From Escherichia phage T4_ev151: a stretch of DNA of 64,000 nt. The DNA lies in sequence record LR597660, one strand, 5' to 3'. The notes under the pieces were generated by a model, which had not been told where the DNA came from, searched no databases, and saw nothing but the letters and a program-made list of their open reading frames with translations. The position numbers and the translations under genes are program-made. The number at the start of each line of letters is the position of its first letter. The first letter of the stretch is position 1. Positions 7,164-35,937 of this stretch are shown piece by piece.

Positions 7164-7634
7164 TTAATCATGTTTCCACACCCCATCGGTATTTGACCAA
7201 AGTCGCTGATTATCTGATCCTCGCCACAGCTTTTTAGTCGGAAGATTTTTCTCATACTTCCCATCAATAATAACATCAACATATTTAAGCATTTCTAGTT
7301 GTTTAATATCTTCAAACTTATATCCTGTCCACAACCAAATGCTTTTATTGGGATAAAGATTTTTTACTGTTTGAACAATGCAATGAATAACATCTCGATT
7401 GTCAGGATAGAGAGGGTCTCCTCCAGTTATAGTCAATCCTTCTATATAATCATTATTCAAACATTCAATTAATTGCTCTAGTGTTTCGCCAGTGAATGGA
7501 ATACCATTTCTAGCATTCCATGTTGATTTATTATAACACCCTTCACATTTATGCAAACAACCTGTAACGAAAAGAACGACCCTGCAACCAGGGCCATTCA
7601 CAAAATCGCAAGGATAAAATCTATCATAATTCAT
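7164..7634 (-). CDS. nrdG: Anaerobic ribonucleotide reductase activating protein (radical SAM)
   Basis: 156 aa; CxxxCxxC cluster motif GCLHKCEGCYNK; ATGA coupling to nrdD. Confidence 0.9.
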   Translation of the reverse strand: MNYDRFYPCDFVNGPGCRVVLFVTGCLHKCEGCYNKSTWNARNGIPFTGETLEQLIECLNNDYIEGLTITGGDPLYPDNRDVIHCIVQTVKNLYPNKSIWLWTGYKFEDIKQLEMLKYVDVIIDGKYEKNLPTKKLWRGSDNQRLWSNTDGVWKHD

Positions 7635-9448
7635 TGGTGTTTAACCCTATGCATGATTTCTTTGTTTTTACCGAGATTAAATCCGCGTTCGTTCGGATTT
7701 CCCAAATAACCACATGTTCTTCTTATGGTATTCATCTTTTTAGGATCAGTTTCTCCACAAATAGAACAAACAAATCCGTTTTCAGTAGGAGTCATTTCAT
7801 GGGTACTTCCACATGTAAAACATTTATCTACCGGCATGTTAACACCAAAATAATCTAAATGTTGTGCAGCATAATCCCATACGGCCTCAAGGCCTTTTAA
7901 GTTATTTTTCATATCAGGAAGTTCAACATAAGAAATGTGACCACCTGTCGCAATGAAATGATATGGCGCTTCACGAGAAATCTTTTCAAACGGAGTAATA
8001 TTTTCTTCTACTGAAACATGGAAACTGTTAGTGTACCAACCTTTATCGGTAACATCTTTTACGCTTCCATATTTTTCTGTATCTAGTTTACAGAAGCGAT
8101 AACAAAGGTTTTCAGCAGGAGTCGAATATAAACTAAAAGCAAATCCGGTTCTTTCAGTCCACTGTTTAAGATGAGCATTCATTTTAGTTAAAATTTCCTG
8201 TCCAATATCACGACCGACAAGAATATTCAATTCGTGAATACCAATGTATCCTAAAGACACTGAACTTCTGCCGTTTTTAAATAACTCAATTATATCGTCA
8301 TCAGGTTTAAGACGAACCCCGAATGCACCTTCTTGGTAAAGAATAGGAGCAACAGTCGCTTTAACTCCTTTTAAGGAACTAATTCTACACATCAAAGCTT
8401 CAAAACATAAATCCATTCGTTCATTGAACAATTCAACAAATTTCTGTTCATTGAACTGTGTTCCAATATAAGAATCTAACGCGATGCGAGGAAGATTCAG
8501 TGTTACAACACCAAGATTATTACGTCCATCAAGAATTTCATTACCAGTCGAATCTTTCCATACGCTCAAGAAACTACGGCAACCCATTGGAGAAACAGGA
8601 ACAGATGAACCAGTGATAGCTTTATTGTTCTTAGCTGAAATAATATCAGGATACATCCTTTTGCTTGCACACTCTAGAGCAAGCTGCTTAATATCATAGT
8701 TCGGATCGTCTTTGTAAAGATTAACGCCTTCTTCGACGAACATAACAAGCTTAGGAAAAATAGGAGTTATCCCATCACGACCGAGACCTTTAATACGATT
8801 TTTCAGAATTGCTTTCTGAATCATTCGTTCAGTCCAGTCAGTTCCCGTACCAAATGTAATTGTTACAAAAGGAGTTTGTCCGTTTGAACTAAAGAGAGTA
8901 TTTACTTCATATTCATAAGCTTGGAATGCATCGTATACGTCTTTTTCTGTTTTAGATTGAGCATAATTCAACGCATCGGCGATTTGCCATTTTTCTGCAT
9001 CCTCAATATGTTTTGCATAGGTGCGTTTAACATAAGGAGAAAGTACTTTATCTACATTAGCAAAAGTCGTTCCGCCATATTGGTGAGAAGCAACCTGTGC
9101 AGTAATTTGTGCCATAATTGCAGTAGCAACACCGATTGATTTAGGAGTTTCAATCTGCGCATTACCAAGCTTAAATCCGTTCTCAAGCATTCCTTTTAAA
9201 TCTACTAAACAGCAATTAGTAAATGGAAGAGCAGGGGAATAATCAATATCATGGAAATGGATAATTCCGCTTTCATGCGCTTTCATAATAAAAGACGGGA
9301 CCATATTTTTGGCAATGTGTTTAGACACAATACCAGCCATAAGGTCCCGTTGAGTTGGAAAAACACGAGAATCTTTATTAGCATTCTCGTTTAAAAGGTC
9401 TTTATTAGTTTTATGAATCAATCCTTCAATTTCTTTTTCAATTGTCAT
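7631..9448 (-). CDS. nrdD: Anaerobic ribonucleoside-triphosphate reductase (glycyl radical), uninterrupted
   Basis: 605 aa continuous ORF; C-terminal glycyl-radical motif RRTCGYLG; C-terminal Cys cluster. Confidence 0.95.
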   Translation of the reverse strand: MTIEKEIEGLIHKTNKDLLNENANKDSRVFPTQRDLMAGIVSKHIAKNMVPSFIMKAHESGIIHFHDIDYSPALPFTNCCLVDLKGMLENGFKLGNAQIETPKSIGVATAIMAQITAQVASHQYGGTTFANVDKVLSPYVKRTYAKHIEDAEKWQIADALNYAQSKTEKDVYDAFQAYEYEVNTLFSSNGQTPFVTITFGTGTDWTERMIQKAILKNRIKGLGRDGITPIFPKLVMFVEEGVNLYKDDPNYDIKQLALECASKRMYPDIISAKNNKAITGSSVPVSPMGCRSFLSVWKDSTGNEILDGRNNLGVVTLNLPRIALDSYIGTQFNEQKFVELFNERMDLCFEALMCRISSLKGVKATVAPILYQEGAFGVRLKPDDDIIELFKNGRSSVSLGYIGIHELNILVGRDIGQEILTKMNAHLKQWTERTGFAFSLYSTPAENLCYRFCKLDTEKYGSVKDVTDKGWYTNSFHVSVEENITPFEKISREAPYHFIATGGHISYVELPDMKNNLKGLEAVWDYAAQHLDYFGVNMPVDKCFTCGSTHEMTPTENGFVCSICGETDPKKMNTIRRTCGYLGNPNERGFNLGKNKEIMHRVKHQ

Positions 9449-23813: not shown

Positions 23814-24395
23814 CTAACCGAGCTTTTTAGTTAATTCGTTCCAATGTTTTCTACACAAAGAAACATAAATTTCATCACCAATACAGATTTGATTACCTTC
23901 TTTAACTGGTGTTCCATCTTCCATTAATCGAGCTGTCATAATAGCTTTTTTACCACAATGACAAACTGCCTTTAGTTCAATAAGTTTATCTGCAATCGCC
24001 AAAAGTTCTTTAGAACCTTCAAATAATTTTCCAGCGAAATCAGTCCTTAGCCCATAAGCCATAACAGGAACATTATATGTATCAACAATTCGACTTAATT
24101 GATGCACCTGTTCAGTTTTTAAAAACTGAGCTTCATCTACAAATACACAATGAATATCTTTTTGTGCTTCAGCCCATTTATAGAACTCAAAAATATCCAT
24201 ATCATCCGTAATAATATTCGCTTCCTGCTTAATTCCAATGCGAGAAACGACTTCACAGACAGAATCGCGAGTATCAATAGCAGGCTTAAGAACTAATACA
24301 CCCATTCCGCGTTCTTTATAATTATGTGCAGCAGTCAAAAGAGAAGCAGATTTTCCAGCATTCATTGCTGCGTAAGTAAAAATTAAACTCGCCAT
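23814..24395 (-). CDS. tk: Thymidine kinase
   Basis: 193 aa; P-loop AMNAGKS; C-terminal Cys pairs; matches recalled T4 Tk. Confidence 0.95.
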   Translation of the reverse strand: MASLIFTYAAMNAGKSASLLTAAHNYKERGMGVLVLKPAIDTRDSVCEVVSRIGIKQEANIITDDMDIFEFYKWAEAQKDIHCVFVDEAQFLKTEQVHQLSRIVDTYNVPVMAYGLRTDFAGKLFEGSKELLAIADKLIELKAVCHCGKKAIMTARLMEDGTPVKEGNQICIGDEIYVSLCRKHWNELTKKLG

Positions 24396-25636: not shown

Positions 25637-25974
25637 CTAGTACTCAATCCTCGATTATAAGAATCTACCAAACGGTCAACCATTGAATGACAAGCGGCTT
25701 TATCTTTCTCCTCCGCAACTGAACATTCTAAGGTATTCCACTTTTTAGCATATCGTTTTAACAATGTATCATTTTTGTATCTGCTTGATTTATCTCTTTC
25801 TCCGTCTTTATATGCATATATTAATTTCTGCGCAAATTCAGCTTGGCATGCTTTATTTTTCCCGCAATAATCCGCTGCAGTACGGTTTACATACTCTCTA
25901 ATTTCAGTATATGATGTATCTGCTAACGCAGAAAATGAAATTAATCCTATACATAAAACCAAAATTTTAGTCAT
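25633..25974 (-). CDS. Secreted small protein (signal peptide; vs position)
   Basis: 113 aa; N-terminal MTKILVLCIGLISFSALA; several Cys. Confidence 0.5.
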   Translation of the reverse strand: MTKILVLCIGLISFSALADTSYTEIREYVNRTAADYCGKNKACQAEFAQKLIYAYKDGERDKSSRYKNDTLLKRYAKKWNTLECSVAEEKDKAACHSMVDRLVDSYNRGLSTR

Positions 25975-26512
25975 TTACTATTTCCAAAAGTTTATTATTT
26001 TTAAGGTAATTAGCCTTTTCTAGGACTTCAGAAGCATATTTAGAACCTGCTTTAACATTCCATCCCGAATTATAAGAGGATATTGCTTTTCTTATATCGC
26101 CCTTATGTATATTTAACCAATAAGAAAGTTCAATGTACGCCCAGGAAGCTGAATTGGATCGTTTATTCAACATTCTTTTTATTTCAGCATCGGTCATATT
26201 ATAACCAAGTTCCTTAACTCTTGCTCGCATAGTAGGCAAATAATTTTGGAACATTCCATAAGCGTGATGCTTTGGTTTAGATTTTAAATTAACTCCGCCA
26301 GAGCTTTCTTGCCATAAAATGGCTGCCATTATATGGCCTAATCCGCTCTTGTGGATGTTTTTGTGTGTTTTATATTTTCCATCCTTAGAAAATTGTTCCC
26401 CGAATTGATACGCGTAACGCATGTTATCGAGTTGGACATTACTGAAAGTATGCTCGGAGCTATGTGCCATCATTGAAATGGCCAATAGACCAGCGAGTAG
26501 TGCTTTTCTCAT
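25967..26512 (-). CDS. Secreted protein, possible lytic transglycosylase-like (vs.1 position)
   Basis: 181 aa; signal peptide MRKALLAGLLAISMMAHS; LWQESSGG motif. Confidence 0.5.
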   Translation of the reverse strand: MRKALLAGLLAISMMAHSSEHTFSNVQLDNMRYAYQFGEQFSKDGKYKTHKNIHKSGLGHIMAAILWQESSGGVNLKSKPKHHAYGMFQNYLPTMRARVKELGYNMTDAEIKRMLNKRSNSASWAYIELSYWLNIHKGDIRKAISSYNSGWNVKAGSKYASEVLEKANYLKNNKLLEIVND

Positions 26513-26519
26513 GCTTACC

Positions 26520-26981
26520 TCATTGAGTTTTAATTACTGCTTTAGAAGCCTTTCCTGGTAAACGACGACTGTTGATAATTGCCATCCTGCATTGAAGTGA
26601 CGGGTTTTTGAACTTCTCATTAGGCTTACAAACCGTAAATCCAAGCCAAAGATTTCCATCTGTGATTTCTAAACGTCCAGGACGATATTCAACCCCATCA
26701 ATAAAATCCTCGTCAATGTCAGGACGCGGAGGCATACTCAGGAATTCATTAACTTCTAAAACATGGTCTTTTATTTTATGGAATAATTCAAAAACATATG
26801 TCTCATCAATCTCCCGTTGAATTGCACGATCAAGAAGATGTTGAGAATATTTTAGATGAAACGATGAGACTCCTGCTGCTTTTGATGCCTCACGAATCTC
26901 ATTGTTAATTTGACGAAACTCCGACTCAAAATGACGACGAAGCTTATTTCGACGGATAAAAACTTCTGTATTGATAGTCAT
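26520..26981 (-). CDS. regB: Endoribonuclease RegB
   Basis: 153 aa, size and position as T4 RegB; early promoter immediately upstream. Confidence 0.8.
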   Translation of the reverse strand: MTINTEVFIRRNKLRRHFESEFRQINNEIREASKAAGVSSFHLKYSQHLLDRAIQREIDETYVFELFHKIKDHVLEVNEFLSMPPRPDIDEDFIDGVEYRPGRLEITDGNLWLGFTVCKPNEKFKNPSLQCRMAIINSRRLPGKASKAVIKTQ

Positions 26982-27319: not shown

Positions 27320-27585
27320 TAGTATTTTTCCTCTGGTTGGAACACTGCGCGACAAGCCCACATACTGGCTTCTTTGAGTTTCGTTTTAGCAATAGTTAAC
27401 TGATCGAGGCTTTCAGCATAATTCTTCGCGAATTCACAGTCTTCGCAATTATCTAGTGCTTCCCAGAATTCATCGTATAAAGCATCAAAGATAAGTCCTA
27501 AACGAACTTCAGCGTCTTTGATAGCATTCACTTTACCGATTTTCTCTTCAGTATGCGGCTTATAACCTTTAATGTCTTCAATCAT
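27319..27585 (-). CDS. vs.4: Acb2-like cyclic-oligonucleotide sponge (vs.4 position)
   Basis: ATG 27585 with AGGAAG SD (alt ATG 27615, track TTG 27621); small helical protein; identity rests on synteny. Confidence 0.55.
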
Positions 27586-27799
27586 ATTTGACTTCCTCAC
27601 CAGTACATAAATCATATTCAACTAAACGAATAGGTTCATGAATGCCATATCCCTGAACAGAAATTTCTGTCGTAGGATAAATTCCACTAATATCACCCAT
27701 ATTCCACGCTTCATTAAATTGCTGTTCGCCTGAATTACTAAACCATTCTGCGAAAGCATTTAGCACATCTTTAGAACCTTCAATAATTATCTTTGCCAT
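27578..27799 (-). CDS. Hypothetical protein (vs.5 position)
   Basis: 73-aa ORF, ATG start. Confidence 0.5.
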   Translation of the reverse strand: MAKIIIEGSKDVLNAFAEWFSNSGEQQFNEAWNMGDISGIYPTTEISVQGYGIHEPIRLVEYDLCTGEEVKYD

Positions 27800-28161
27800 T
27801 ACAGACTCTCAGTAAAGGTACGAGCGATAACGTCGCGCTGCTGTTCCGGAGTCAGAGAGTTAAAGCGAACTGCATAACCTGATACACGGATGGTCAGCTG
27901 CGGATATTTTTCCGGATGCTTAACTGCATCTTCCAGAGTTTCACGACGCAGAACGTTAACGTTCAGGTGCTGACCACCTTCAATTTTAACTGTAGGTTGT
28001 GGCTCAATTTCAATTTCACGGGCATGCAAACCATAGAAAATTTCTGGGTCTACAAAAGAGTCCTCTTTAAAGGTTTTAGAAACAATAATTCGTGCTTGAA
28101 TACCATCTTCAAAATAAATAGTACCTTTATGCGTGCCTTCAAGAATTTGATATGCTTTCAT
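27799..28161 (-). CDS. Autonomous glycyl radical cofactor (GrcA/YfiD homolog)
   Basis: 120 aa; C-terminal half matches recalled E. coli GrcA incl. RVSGYAVRF glycyl-radical motif. Confidence 0.85.
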
Positions 28162-28168
28162 ATAAACC

Positions 28169-28498
28169 TCAATTAGAAAATAAATTTATCCAAGATTGTT
28201 CTTTAATTAAAAATGGCTCAGAATCATATGCCATTAAACTTTGCGTAATTAATCCTTTAAAAGGTCCATCAATAAATTCCATGGTAAAATATGGAATTTT
28301 ATTCATTAGCCGTGCATTAGGAGCAGTGCACAAAACTCTGCATCCTTTGAATACACCTTTTTGTAATTTGTATTGCTTGGGATAAAATTCGCTTAAAATG
28401 TTGTTATTTGCCAAAATTTCAAAATGATTCACCAATTTATTTTTAATAGTTTTTGGCGAAAAATAAAGATATTCGAAAAGCTGAGTGTCTGTCATCAT
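28169..28498 (-). CDS. Hypothetical protein (vs.7 position); start uncertain
   Basis: ATG at 28498/28495 or 28549. Confidence 0.45.
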
Positions 28499-29031
28499 TG
28501 CATTCCGATTACGAAAAACTGTGGACGAGTAATACCACCAATACAACATTTAATATTACAGCAGTAGTGTACAGTGTCAATATGGACGCTATAAATCTTA
28601 TCCATATCAGGAGATTTGACAGGCTCATCAATTATATACAAAATTCGCGAAAGCGATAAACCTCTGAACTTGCTTCCTTTATTACCAATAAAACTGCGCA
28701 CAGAATCAGTAAATAAACGAAAACGTATATCATTAGAATAACGCGAAAATTCCTTTTTAATGTTATTTGCAGAAATTTTAGCGTAAGCTGAAGTATTAGA
28801 AAGAACAATAACTGTTCCGCCATCATACAACCAATTAGCGGCAAAATTAGTTACTGCGGTTGATTTACCGGATTGACGTCCACCATCTAGTCGAAGTGTG
28901 CAATACTGCTTAAGTAAGTCTTCAAATGGTGGGATATATTCGTTTTTACAAATTTCTTCTACTCTAGCATCAGAATGGTGTGTAAAAGCATTCATCAGGG
29001 ATAGATAAGGACCAGTTAAAAATGTTCTCAT
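28495..29031 (-). CDS. Small P-loop NTPase (vs.8 position)
   Basis: Walker A GGRQSGKST, Walker B ILYIIDEP; start ATG 29031 preferred (track 29079). Confidence 0.5.
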   Translation of the reverse strand: MRTFLTGPYLSLMNAFTHHSDARVEEICKNEYIPPFEDLLKQYCTLRLDGGRQSGKSTAVTNFAANWLYDGGTVIVLSNTSAYAKISANNIKKEFSRYSNDIRFRLFTDSVRSFIGNKGSKFRGLSLSRILYIIDEPVKSPDMDKIYSVHIDTVHYCCNIKCCIGGITRPQFFVIGMQ

Positions 29032-34652: not shown

Positions 34653-34729
34653 TGGTCGAGGCAGAAGGATTCTAACCTTCAACCTACGGATTAGAAATCC
34701 GTTGCTCTATACAATTGAGCTATGCCCCG
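34653..34729 (-). tRNA. tRNA-Arg (anticodon TCT), CCA encoded
   Basis: Cloverleaf read by eye: acceptor cggggca/tgcctcg, anticodon loop tTCTaa. Confidence 0.8.
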
Positions 34730-34732
34730 TAA

Positions 34733-35398
34733 TTAAAATTTCATTTTTCGACCTTTAAACCATCCTTCTGGAATTGGGTCAGTTTTCTTAATACGTTTAG
34801 AAACTTTTTCATCTAATGAATGAATCCACATCATACCAAATTGGGAATTCTTTTCGCCCTGTTGATGTTTATTTCTGGCGTGAGATTCTTTCATTTTATT
34901 AATAGTTTCAGGAGTATGGGTCTTACCCAAGAAAGATTTAGTATTTAAAAATTTCTCTCTATACTTAGGATTATCCCAAAGCCGTTTAAACCTTTCTGAA
35001 CCCATTTTACGATATTTTTCTTTAAGGTCTGGGTCGTTCTCAAATCTGGTTTTAAAAGCGGCAGCTCCTTTTAAGGAAGCTTCTTTCTTTTTATCCAAAT
35101 ATTCTTTAGTGTTTAAATGGTCCCAACCACCTTCACCACCTAATTTCAAATTATAAACATCAGGGCGCTTTAAAAACTCTTCAGTCACAATATTCTTTTC
35201 TGACTCAAACATAGAGGTTTTATCGTCAAAGAACTCTAATATTTCTTTAGAAAAATTTTCTATACCATACTTATCTTGGGCTCTTTTTAATAATTTACCA
35301 GAACCCATATATCCATCATCTAAATTTTCGGTAGAATGAGCGCCTATATAGATTTTATTATTAATTTTATTTGTTATTTTATAAATGTAATGGAACAT
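34733..35398 (-). CDS. segB: GIY-YIG homing endonuclease SegB
   Basis: 221 aa; MFHYIYKITNKINNKIYIGAHS GIY-YIG core; sits inside the tRNA cluster as in T4. Confidence 0.85.
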   Translation of the reverse strand: MFHYIYKITNKINNKIYIGAHSTENLDDGYMGSGKLLKRAQDKYGIENFSKEILEFFDDKTSMFESEKNIVTEEFLKRPDVYNLKLGGEGGWDHLNTKEYLDKKKEASLKGAAAFKTRFENDPDLKEKYRKMGSERFKRLWDNPKYREKFLNTKSFLGKTHTPETINKMKESHARNKHQQGEKNSQFGMMWIHSLDEKVSKRIKKTDPIPEGWFKGRKMKF

Positions 35399-35439
35399 AA
35401 ATATCTCCTATTTCTAAGAGTATTTATGTTCTCAAAATA

Positions 35440-35511
35440 TGGCCCTGGGTGGAATTGAACCACCATCTGGCGATTATGAGTCGCTTGCTTGAACCTTCCA
35501 GCTACAGGGCC
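35440..35511 (-). tRNA. tRNA-Ile (anticodon CAT, lysidine-type)
   Basis: Acceptor ggccctg/cagggcc, T-loop ggttcaattcc, anticodon loop cTCATaa; assignment by T4 order. Confidence 0.7.
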
Positions 35512-35517
35512 TTGATA

Positions 35518-35590
35518 TGCTGATTGACGGAATCGAACCGCCGACATCCTCATTACAAGTGAGGTGCTCTACCTACTGAGCTAAATCAGC
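35518..35590 (-). tRNA. tRNA-Thr (anticodon TGT)
   Basis: Acceptor gctgatt/aatcagc, anticodon loop cTTGTaa, T-loop ggttcgattcc. Confidence 0.8.
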
Positions 35591-35597
35591 GAAATTA

Positions 35598-35684
35598 CGG
35601 AGGCGATAGGATTTGAACCTATGAGTCGCCGGAGCGACTGCCGGTTTTCAAGACCGGTGCATTAAACCACTCTGCCACGCCTCC
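35598..35684 (-). tRNA. tRNA-Ser (anticodon TGA), long variable arm
   Basis: 87 nt; acceptor ggaggcg/cgcctcc, anticodon loop cTTGAaa. Confidence 0.8.
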
Positions 35685-35686
35685 AG

Positions 35687-35760
35687 TCTCCGTGGCAGGA
35701 TTTGAACCTACGACATTCTGCTCCCAAAGCAGACGCTCTACCAAACTGAGCTACACGGAG
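35687..35760 (-). tRNA. tRNA-Pro (anticodon TGG)
   Basis: Acceptor ctccgtg/cacggag, anticodon loop cTTTGGGa, T-loop ttcaaat. Confidence 0.8.
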
Positions 35761-35772
35761 TAAATTAAATTT

Positions 35773-35844
<72 letters not shown>

Positions 35845-35850
35845 AAACTT

Positions 35851-35937
35851 TGGTACGAGAAGTGGGACTCGAACCCACAAGGAAATCATTCCGCAGCATT
35901 TTAAGTGCTGTGCCTTTACCAATTTGACCATTCTCGC
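35851..35937 (-). tRNA. tRNA-Leu (anticodon TAA), long variable arm, CCA encoded
   Basis: 87 nt; acceptor gcgagaa/ttctcgt, anticodon loop cTTAAaa. Confidence 0.8.

Follow-up and report, generated by a model that had tools for sequence, protein, structure and literature searches.

The vs.6 gene of Escherichia phage T4_ev151, very probably a long-resident phage grcA homologue with a radical module replaced by host DNA

Introduction

The closest described relatives of the gene considered here, vs.6 of Escherichia phage T4_ev151, are vs.6 of phage T4, coding for Y06I, and grcA of Escherichia coli, coding for GrcA (YfiD). Like YfiD, Y06I is activated by the activase of pyruvate formate-lyase (PFL) and restores oxygen-cleaved PFL, according to the summary of Wagner et al. 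(2001) given in PMC8683613. Nuclear magnetic resonance revealed that residues 1-60 of YfiD are disordered and aid binding and activation, and that residues 61-127 fold like residues 693-759 of PFL (PMC8683613). A comparative paper of 2006 reported the Gly_radical domain of vs.6 and guessed a role in nucleotide metabolism (PMC1524935). Genes assembled from phage and host segments have been described for psbA and psbD of cyanophages (Sullivan et al. 2006, PMC1484495). We analysed a 64,000-bp stretch of the T4_ev151 genome (sequence record LR597660; referred to as the window in the rest of the text), in which vs.6 occupies positions 27799..28161 on the minus strand. We propose that vs.6 is very probably a grcA homologue of long standing in phages, in which gene conversion replaced the radical module by the allele of the E. 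coli host, rather than the product of a first capture of that module; this reading is drawn from comparison of DNA and protein sequences. Both the gene and the biochemistry of its product have been described before; what we add is evidence at the nucleotide level for a recurrent, host-specific patch. In the literature we found, besides that 2006 paper, only work on function and no description of the nucleotide-level mosaic or of its host-specific recurrence, earlier mention in the T4 genome review or in the primary papers of 2001 and 2019 being possible.

Results

The 3′ half of vs.6 is nearly identical to E. coli grcA

The open reading frame (ORF) of vs.6 starts with ATG, ends with TAA and codes for a 120-amino-acid product of ~14 kDa. 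Gene nucleotides 179-363 (27799..27983, minus strand), which we regard as a host-derived block, were identical to grcA at 182 of 185 positions (98.4%) in 5,426/5,426 complete E. coli genomes (blastn). The corresponding residues 61-120 (EGGQHL...TESL) agree with residues 68-127 of E. coli GrcA at all 60 positions, bearing out a preliminary description, made from the letters of this DNA alone, which had reported a match of the C-terminal ~60 residues to GrcA/YfiD. All three nucleotide mismatches are synonymous (TCA/TCC at 27880, GAG/GAA at 27808 and AGT/AGC at 27805). In the alignment with grcA, identity runs from ...ATT|GAAGGTGGTCAG... to the TAA codon, and the flanks are unrelated.

The two halves of the gene (hereafter its head, 5′, and its tail, 3′) also differ in composition. 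The 3′ half has a GC content of 0.492, a GC content at third codon positions (GC3) of 0.426 and a fraction of E. coli-preferred codons of 0.82, near the values of E. coli grcA itself (0.503, 0.443 and 0.87, respectively), compared to 0.339, 0.186 and 0.47 for the 5′ half. The preliminary description had placed a GC-richer segment with E. coli-like codons at about 27799-27990, next to an AT-rich 5′ half; the GC3 values agree, and its range was right within 7 nucleotides. Neither of the two outcomes that it had named as fatal, a uniform GC content across the ORF and an identity to grcA no higher than that of other phage genes, comes anywhere near what we observed. Among 183-nucleotide segments across the 64 kb, 0.45% reach the GC content of the 3′ half, the others lying mostly in a tRNA cluster. 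Since this cluster has a similar GC content, we rejected GC content alone as proof, and the argument is therefore carried by identity and by codon-level tests.

Megablast searches of window positions 1-22000 and 43001-64000 against E. coli genomes returned no match. For positions 20001-45000, all best matches listed fell within 27795-27983 (to grcA, or to pflB at ~81%), and the vs.6 patch is the only host-like DNA among the matches listed for the 64-kb window.

To compare possible donors we used grcA of 80 Enterobacterales and Pasteurellales species and of Klebsiella pneumoniae. Identity over the core tail was 98.9% for E. coli, 97.7% for a cryptic Escherichia species, about 91-92% for Citrobacter (92% for C. 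amalonaticus) and 85-87% for Salmonella and Klebsiella (87% for K. pneumoniae). The tail differs from that of E. coli by 3 synonymous changes, compared to 17-23 between E. coli and Klebsiella or Salmonella. The genes pflB and tdcE were rejected as donors (about 76-81% nucleotide identity versus 98% for grcA). By this measure the patch is recent, its 2-3 synonymous differences falling within the range of divergence among Escherichia lineages.

The 5′ half is a diverged GrcA N-terminal half of phage type

Gene nucleotides 1-178 (27984..28161, minus strand; amino acids 1-59) gave no match in the 5,426 complete E. coli genomes, even by blastn with a word size of 11. At the protein level, the N-terminal half aligns to GrcA residues 28-67 with 33% identity (BLASTP, E = 2e-5), and the alignments of the whole product to the NCBIfam family TIGR04365 and to PDB entry 6OWR both run through it. 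Heads match phages only, with nucleotide identities of 95-99% in Tequatrovirus, 86-89% in Mosigvirus and 72-76% in Klebsiella phages. By these alignments the 5′ half is not foreign to the gene: it is a strongly diverged GrcA N-terminal half of old phage type.

The product matches Pfam Gly_radical (PF01228, 2.8e-18) and TIGR04365 (spare_glycyl, GrcA; InterPro IPR011140; 3.7e-45, amino acids 20-120 to model positions 25-126). Among solved structures it matches YfiD of E. coli best (PDB 6OWR, 8.6e-42) and the PFL C-terminus next, phage residues 58-120 aligning to PFL residues 697-759. Gly95, in the motif RVSGYAV (codon at 27877..27879, minus strand), is predicted to carry the radical and corresponds to Gly102 of GrcA and Gly734 of PFL according to the literature and to the alignment of the motif to 6OWR and PFL. 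The protein is a small stand-alone one that lacks the PFL catalytic barrel, and its ORF is closely bordered by other genes. A full-length PFL (a ~750-amino-acid ten-stranded barrel with a Cys-Cys site) was considered and rejected, as only PFL residues 697-759 are represented; the database label 'pyruvate formate-lyase' for vs.6 is thus a misnomer. Other labels carried by vs.6 orthologues are '2-ketobutyrate formate-lyase', 'putative acetyltransferase-related protein', 'glycine radical' and 'hypothetical protein'. With 100% amino acid and ~98% nucleotide identity to T4 vs.6 (Y06I), we identify the window gene as the vs.6 of a T4-type phage (Tequatrovirus). The preliminary description had stated that T4 carries a spare part for oxygen-damaged PFL, and it is this very protein that the window encodes.

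The host-like tract has a sharp 5′ breakpoint and a phage-like 3′ edge

We applied the maximum chi-square method with the Karamvirus orthologue as phage parent and E. coli grcA as host parent. The putative recombination breakpoint zone falls at gene nucleotides 177-186 (27976..27985, minus strand; maximum chi-square 82.3, Fisher p = 2.5e-22), with 9 E. coli-like and 63 phage-like informative sites on its left, and 45 and 1, respectively, on its right. It corresponds to GrcA residues 67/68, just inside the boundary between disordered and folded regions at residues 60/61, so that the patch takes in Gly95 and almost all of the folded module.

On its 5′ side, the block of identity has an edge that varies: CAG in the window, CAA in T4 and CAA CAT TTG in Mosigvirus phage p000v. 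At the other end, the last four codons (GAG AGT YTR TAA; here CTG; 27799-27812) match those of unconverted phages, and do so in nearly all converted phages. The last ~10 nucleotides of vs.6 (27799-27810, minus strand) are probably residual phage sequence, as would fit a conversion tract resolved inside pre-existing homology. The G at 27808 produces a GAGAG stretch 8-12 nucleotides upstream of the ATG of vs.5, a possible ribosome-binding site; together with the vs.5 start codon, which also overlaps vs.6, it may restrict how far the tract extends in the 3′ direction.

Host-like tails of two types occur in T4-like phages

The vs.6 gene is covered over at least 80% of its length by 744 phage records. 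Orthologues of the same length and position are found in Mosigvirus, Jiaodavirus, Slopekvirus, Pseudotevenvirus and Karamvirus, and longer ones in Gualtarvirus and Krischvirus. Among phage orthologues the tail is more conserved than the head, and its amino acid sequence is extremely conserved across phages and bacteria. Neighbour-joining analysis of 171 tail sites placed T4-type phages (Tequatrovirus and Mosigvirus) with Escherichia (97% bootstrap) and Jiaodavirus with K. pneumoniae (96%); monophyly of the phages received 0%. Between the window and p000v, flanking genes and head are 70-88% identical and the tail 95-100%, so the patch is younger than the split of the two genera.

Searches with donor tails covered 50,697 phage records. 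The K. pneumoniae grcA tail retrieved 77 records at 95-99%, almost all of them Klebsiella Jiaodavirus. The tail of KPV15 has one mismatch to K. pneumoniae over ~155 nucleotides and that of Merci none over ~130, whereas both are only 85-87% identical to E. coli. Taken with the E. coli-type patch, these comparisons indicate that host DNA entered this tract of phage genomes independently at least twice. The Jiaodavirus phage Roth17 (locus L002, 578-763) has a head 95-97% identical to those of other Jiaodavirus phages and a tail only ~90% identical to K. pneumoniae, which implies another donor or an older event; the same tail is also ~90% identical to a Klebsiella metagenome-assembled genome and to Pseudocitrobacter. 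The Salmonella enterica and Enterobacter asburiae grcA tails matched none of the 50,697 records above 95% (3 per search at 90-95%), and the documented donors are Escherichia and Klebsiella only.

Old tails, with 70-85% nucleotide identity to any bacterial grcA, are carried by Karamvirus, Slopekvirus/Pseudotevenvirus, Krischvirus, Gualtarvirus and T5-like phages, and some of these phages encode an identical tail protein sequence. The tail of IMG/VR contigs L108-L110 is 100% identical to E. coli GrcA in amino acids and only 83% in nucleotides, such that selection at the protein level cannot explain the 98-99% nucleotide identity of the T4-type phages. In the T5-like phages (Demerecviridae) the tail is 72-76% identical to every bacterial grcA, and their gene seems to be a separate, unconverted line of descent of this spare part in phages. 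It is represented by T5.056 of phage T5 (L008, 417-785) and by ~270 Salmonella T5-like records, as a 122-amino-acid GrcA-like gene beside tRNA genes.

Several records turned out to be irregular. In the RefSeq record of KPV15 (L093, 424-786; NC_055715.1), the vs.6 orthologue, whose 5′ half lies outside the reading frame, is annotated as two short coding sequences, reflecting either a sequencing error or a pseudogene. Klebsiella phage vB_Kpn_AM_K4 (L096, PP355766.1, 288,685 bp) carries a Jiaodavirus-type vs.6 whose neighbours are not vs.7 and vs.5 but a gene in reversed orientation and three tRNA genes; its record is ~120 kb longer than those of its relatives and may be a concatenated or chimeric assembly. 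The IMG/VR contig L125, 91% identical to Yersinia grcA, was rejected as a third case of conversion as it holds a complete bacterial grcA (with a MITGIQITKA... head), and contigs L165-L175 were rejected as phage vs.6 since they contain pflB 3′ ends instead; all are probably prophage-flanking or misclassified bacterial DNA. On the bacterial side, grcA of K. aerogenes NCTC10006 (L092, 560-700; LR134122.1) has one A too many in an A-run and is marked as truncated in its annotation, and several PLSDB 'plasmids' with grcA are megabase-sized chromosomal sequences (e.g., 5.37 Mb; L091, CP125156.1).

Replacement within a resident gene accounts best for the mosaic

In bacteria, the heads and tails of grcA diverge from those of E. 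coli in parallel (98/98% in Escherichia sp., 89/93% in Citrobacter and 84/85% in Salmonella), indicating that the gene is inherited vertically there and that transfer went from host to phage. The preliminary description had proposed a chimeric gene whose radical module was captured from the host. Its host origin agrees with the 98-99% nucleotide identity and with the 97% node of the tail tree, but the event itself was in all likelihood a replacement and not a first capture.

Among the other explanations, the one that survives best is that a single E. coli conversion took place in one coliphage lineage and then spread through Tequatrovirus and Mosigvirus by recombination between phages. T4-like phages recombine readily, and nine coliphage tails display few scattered singletons and share some edge states (CAA; GAG AGT), as such a spread would predict. 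Set against it are the different 5′ block edges of the window, T4 and p000v, and Roth17, whose KPV15-like head is joined to a different tail; the Klebsiella-type patch of Jiaodavirus, moreover, is not derivable from the E. coli type, which brings the overall count to at least two events. We consider this scenario a serious contender, albeit one that is on balance somewhat improbable.

That an unrelated phage ORF gained the host radical module for the first time, by illegitimate recombination, would account for a 5′ half without nucleotide similarity to grcA and for a similarity that stops exactly at the stop codon with unrelated flanks. It is nevertheless very improbable, because the 5′ half is homologous to the GrcA N-terminal half at the protein level, because at least six other genera have a 120-amino-acid gene in the same place with a complete, diverged radical module that must have pre-existed, and because the last ~10 nucleotides retain the phage state, as expected for a patch within pre-existing homology.

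We judge more improbable still a single ancient capture of grcA whose 3′ half was since kept by purifying or codon-usage selection, without recent exchange with hosts. The extreme amino acid conservation of the tail in all phages and bacteria, and its stronger conservation than that of the head among phages, would be in keeping with it. However, the synonymous sites are identical in an E. coli-specific manner (3 versus 17-23 differences), other phages encode the same tail amino acids with only 83% nucleotide identity, Tequatrovirus and Mosigvirus share tails at 95-100% between flanks at 70-88%, and Klebsiella phages match Klebsiella, not E. coli.

The reverse transfer, in which E. coli and Klebsiella would have received the 3′ half of grcA from phages, has nothing in its favour but the shared sequence itself and is extremely unlikely given that bacterial heads and tails diverge in step across species, that the tail has host-type GC3 and codon choice and that the block is present in 5,426/5,426 E. 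coli genomes. Contamination by host DNA or chimeric assembly is a negligible prospect, as the same in-frame junction occurs in >600 phage genomes that were sequenced independently, T4, T2 and RB14 among them, and in IMG/VR contigs.

Some observations weigh against gene conversion of a resident grcA homologue by the host allele, or restrict its reach. The recombination between host and phage that it supposes is read from comparison of sequences, and the tail data fit equally a patch gained once and one gained several times among the coliphage genera. With a score of 153.3 bits, the vs.6 protein falls below the TIGR04365 equivalog cutoff of 170; by the NCBI threshold it is a GrcA homologue of a diverged phage subfamily and not an equivalog. 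The E. coli phage Krischvirus pEJ01, as well as Salmonella and Enterobacter phages, have no host-identical tail, hence conversion is not universal even within the family. Tequatroviruses isolated on Yersinia, Citrobacter, Proteus and Hafnia keep the E. coli-type gene, suggesting that the patch tracks the history of the lineage and not the isolation host. The E. coli and K. pneumoniae tails differ by 2 amino acids, and conversions may be neutral. Finally, the modified cytosines of T4 and its destruction of host DNA could either favour or hinder exchange.

Genomic context of vs.6

The gene order vs.7-vs.6-vs.5...regB is conserved and common to six genera. Upstream of vs.6, the TGA stop codon of vs.7 (28169-28549, minus strand) is overlapped by the candidate Shine-Dalgarno sequence of vs.6, a GAGG at 28167..28170 (minus strand), 5 nucleotides upstream of the ATG and predicted from the consensus only. 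Downstream, the ATG of vs.5 (27578-27799, minus strand) overlaps the vs.6 stop codon in a TAATG (27797..27801, minus strand), exactly where alignment places the end of the similarity to E. coli; this stop/start overlap is also found in five other genera. A scan for promoters and terminators around vs.6 gave counts no higher than in shuffled sequence.

Further neighbours in the window are RegB (26520-26981), the SLT-domain protein Vs.1 (25967-26512) and the thymidine kinase gene tk (23814-24395), and the endonuclease VII gene lies in the same segment. A seven-gene tRNA cluster (Arg-tct, Met-cat, Thr-tgt, Ser-tga, Pro-tgg, Gly-tcc, Leu-taa) is located at 34653-35937 (minus strand). The 156-amino-acid NrdG, a radical S-adenosylmethionine (SAM) activase, and an uninterrupted 605-amino-acid NrdD, the anaerobic ribonucleotide reductase, are encoded at 7164-9448 (minus strand). 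NrdD has its own Gly_radical domain, so the same phage carries a second glycyl-radical system.

Discussion

Formate, which PFL makes, is the reductant of class III ribonucleotide reductases. From what the literature reports of Y06I and YfiD, the action of vs.6 would begin when oxygen cleaves host PFL at its radical glycine G734 and the phage protein attaches to the damaged PFL. A new radical would then be put on Gly95 by the PFL activase of the host, a radical SAM enzyme, and the repaired PFL would resume production of acetyl-CoA and formate. The phage may benefit in that fermentative energy continues when the host no longer makes new PFL or GrcA. Since phage NrdD uses the formate that PFL makes, repair by vs.6 may also sustain NrdD/NrdG through this supply.

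T4 has a strong recombination system and recombines with homologous plasmid inserts. As for the patch, T4-like phages have very probably long carried a full-length grcA homologue, ancestrally AT-rich and 70-85% identical in nucleotides to any bacterial grcA, in which homologous or homeologous recombination with grcA DNA of E. coli replaced ~170 nucleotides. This tract starts at the first codons for the folded radical module, ends ~10 nucleotides short of the stop codon and is bounded on both sides by conserved codons. Constraint on the protein may maintain enough similarity between tail and host DNA for the T4 recombination system to act, fragments of the degraded host chromosome may serve as donor, and each conversion would raise identity and ease the next one. 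One could go further and see in vs.6 a standing hot spot of host-to-phage conversion, its module matched to the main enterobacterial genus of the lineage, and similar to host grcA because it must fit host PFL and host activase. We offer this extension tentatively and think it rather unlikely.

If conversion of vs.6 is what happened, strictly virulent phages with modified DNA that destroy the host chromosome would nonetheless acquire short stretches of host genes through recombination, and T4, the best-equipped phage model, would offer a tractable case for measuring host-to-phage gene conversion and the nucleases and recombinases that it requires. The patch is also a possible marker of recent host genus for T4-like phages. 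If the hot spot is real, it would be a built-in record of the recent host genus of a phage lineage; should the matching also prove adaptive rather than neutral, it would represent a host-tracking mechanism for an auxiliary metabolic gene. For annotation and diagnostics, caution is warranted, as this core gene of the Straboviridae has a 3′ half that cannot be told apart from host grcA, and many records mislabel the gene as pyruvate formate-lyase. A paper of 2026 uses vs.6 ('grcA') as a Straboviridae marker for quantitative PCR (PMC12845203). We considered cross-reaction of this assay with host grcA and rejected it, as the forward primer lies in the phage-specific head.

Compared with the described systems, T4 Vs.6/Y06I is the same gene with the same neighbours (vs.7, vs.5, regB, vs.1 and tk) and differs functionally in nothing; the T4 record departs from the window at a few synonymous positions, one of them in the codon at the 5′ edge (CAA in T4, CAG in the window). 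E. coli GrcA (YfiD) resembles the vs.6 product in its RVSGYAV loop, size class and homologous N-terminal half, and grcA resembles vs.6 in its 3′ DNA (98.4%). In contrast, the N-terminal half of the phage protein is shorter by 7 residues and only ~33% identical to that of GrcA, the 5′ DNA shows no resemblance in composition, and grcA has its own host promoter while vs.6 is expressed from a phage early/middle gene cluster. The C-terminal radical domain of PflB (PDB 2PFL, 1H16) and TdcE present the same fold element and motif; PflB differs by its catalytic barrel, absent from vs.6, and by a nucleotide identity of ~80% versus 98% for grcA.

The nearest parallel for the mosaic itself is provided by cyanophage psbA and psbD, which like vs.6 are resident auxiliary metabolic genes with host-exchanged segments and mosaic composition. 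As in psbA-type mosaics, vs.6 has a supported breakpoint, a tail that falls within the host clade and a head that groups with phages. It differs from them by its enterobacterial host, by the hydroxymethylcytosine of the phage DNA and by the degradation of host DNA by the phage, and also by the exchange itself, which is seen as one sharply bounded tract over one structural module, from at least two host genera and at near-100% identity.

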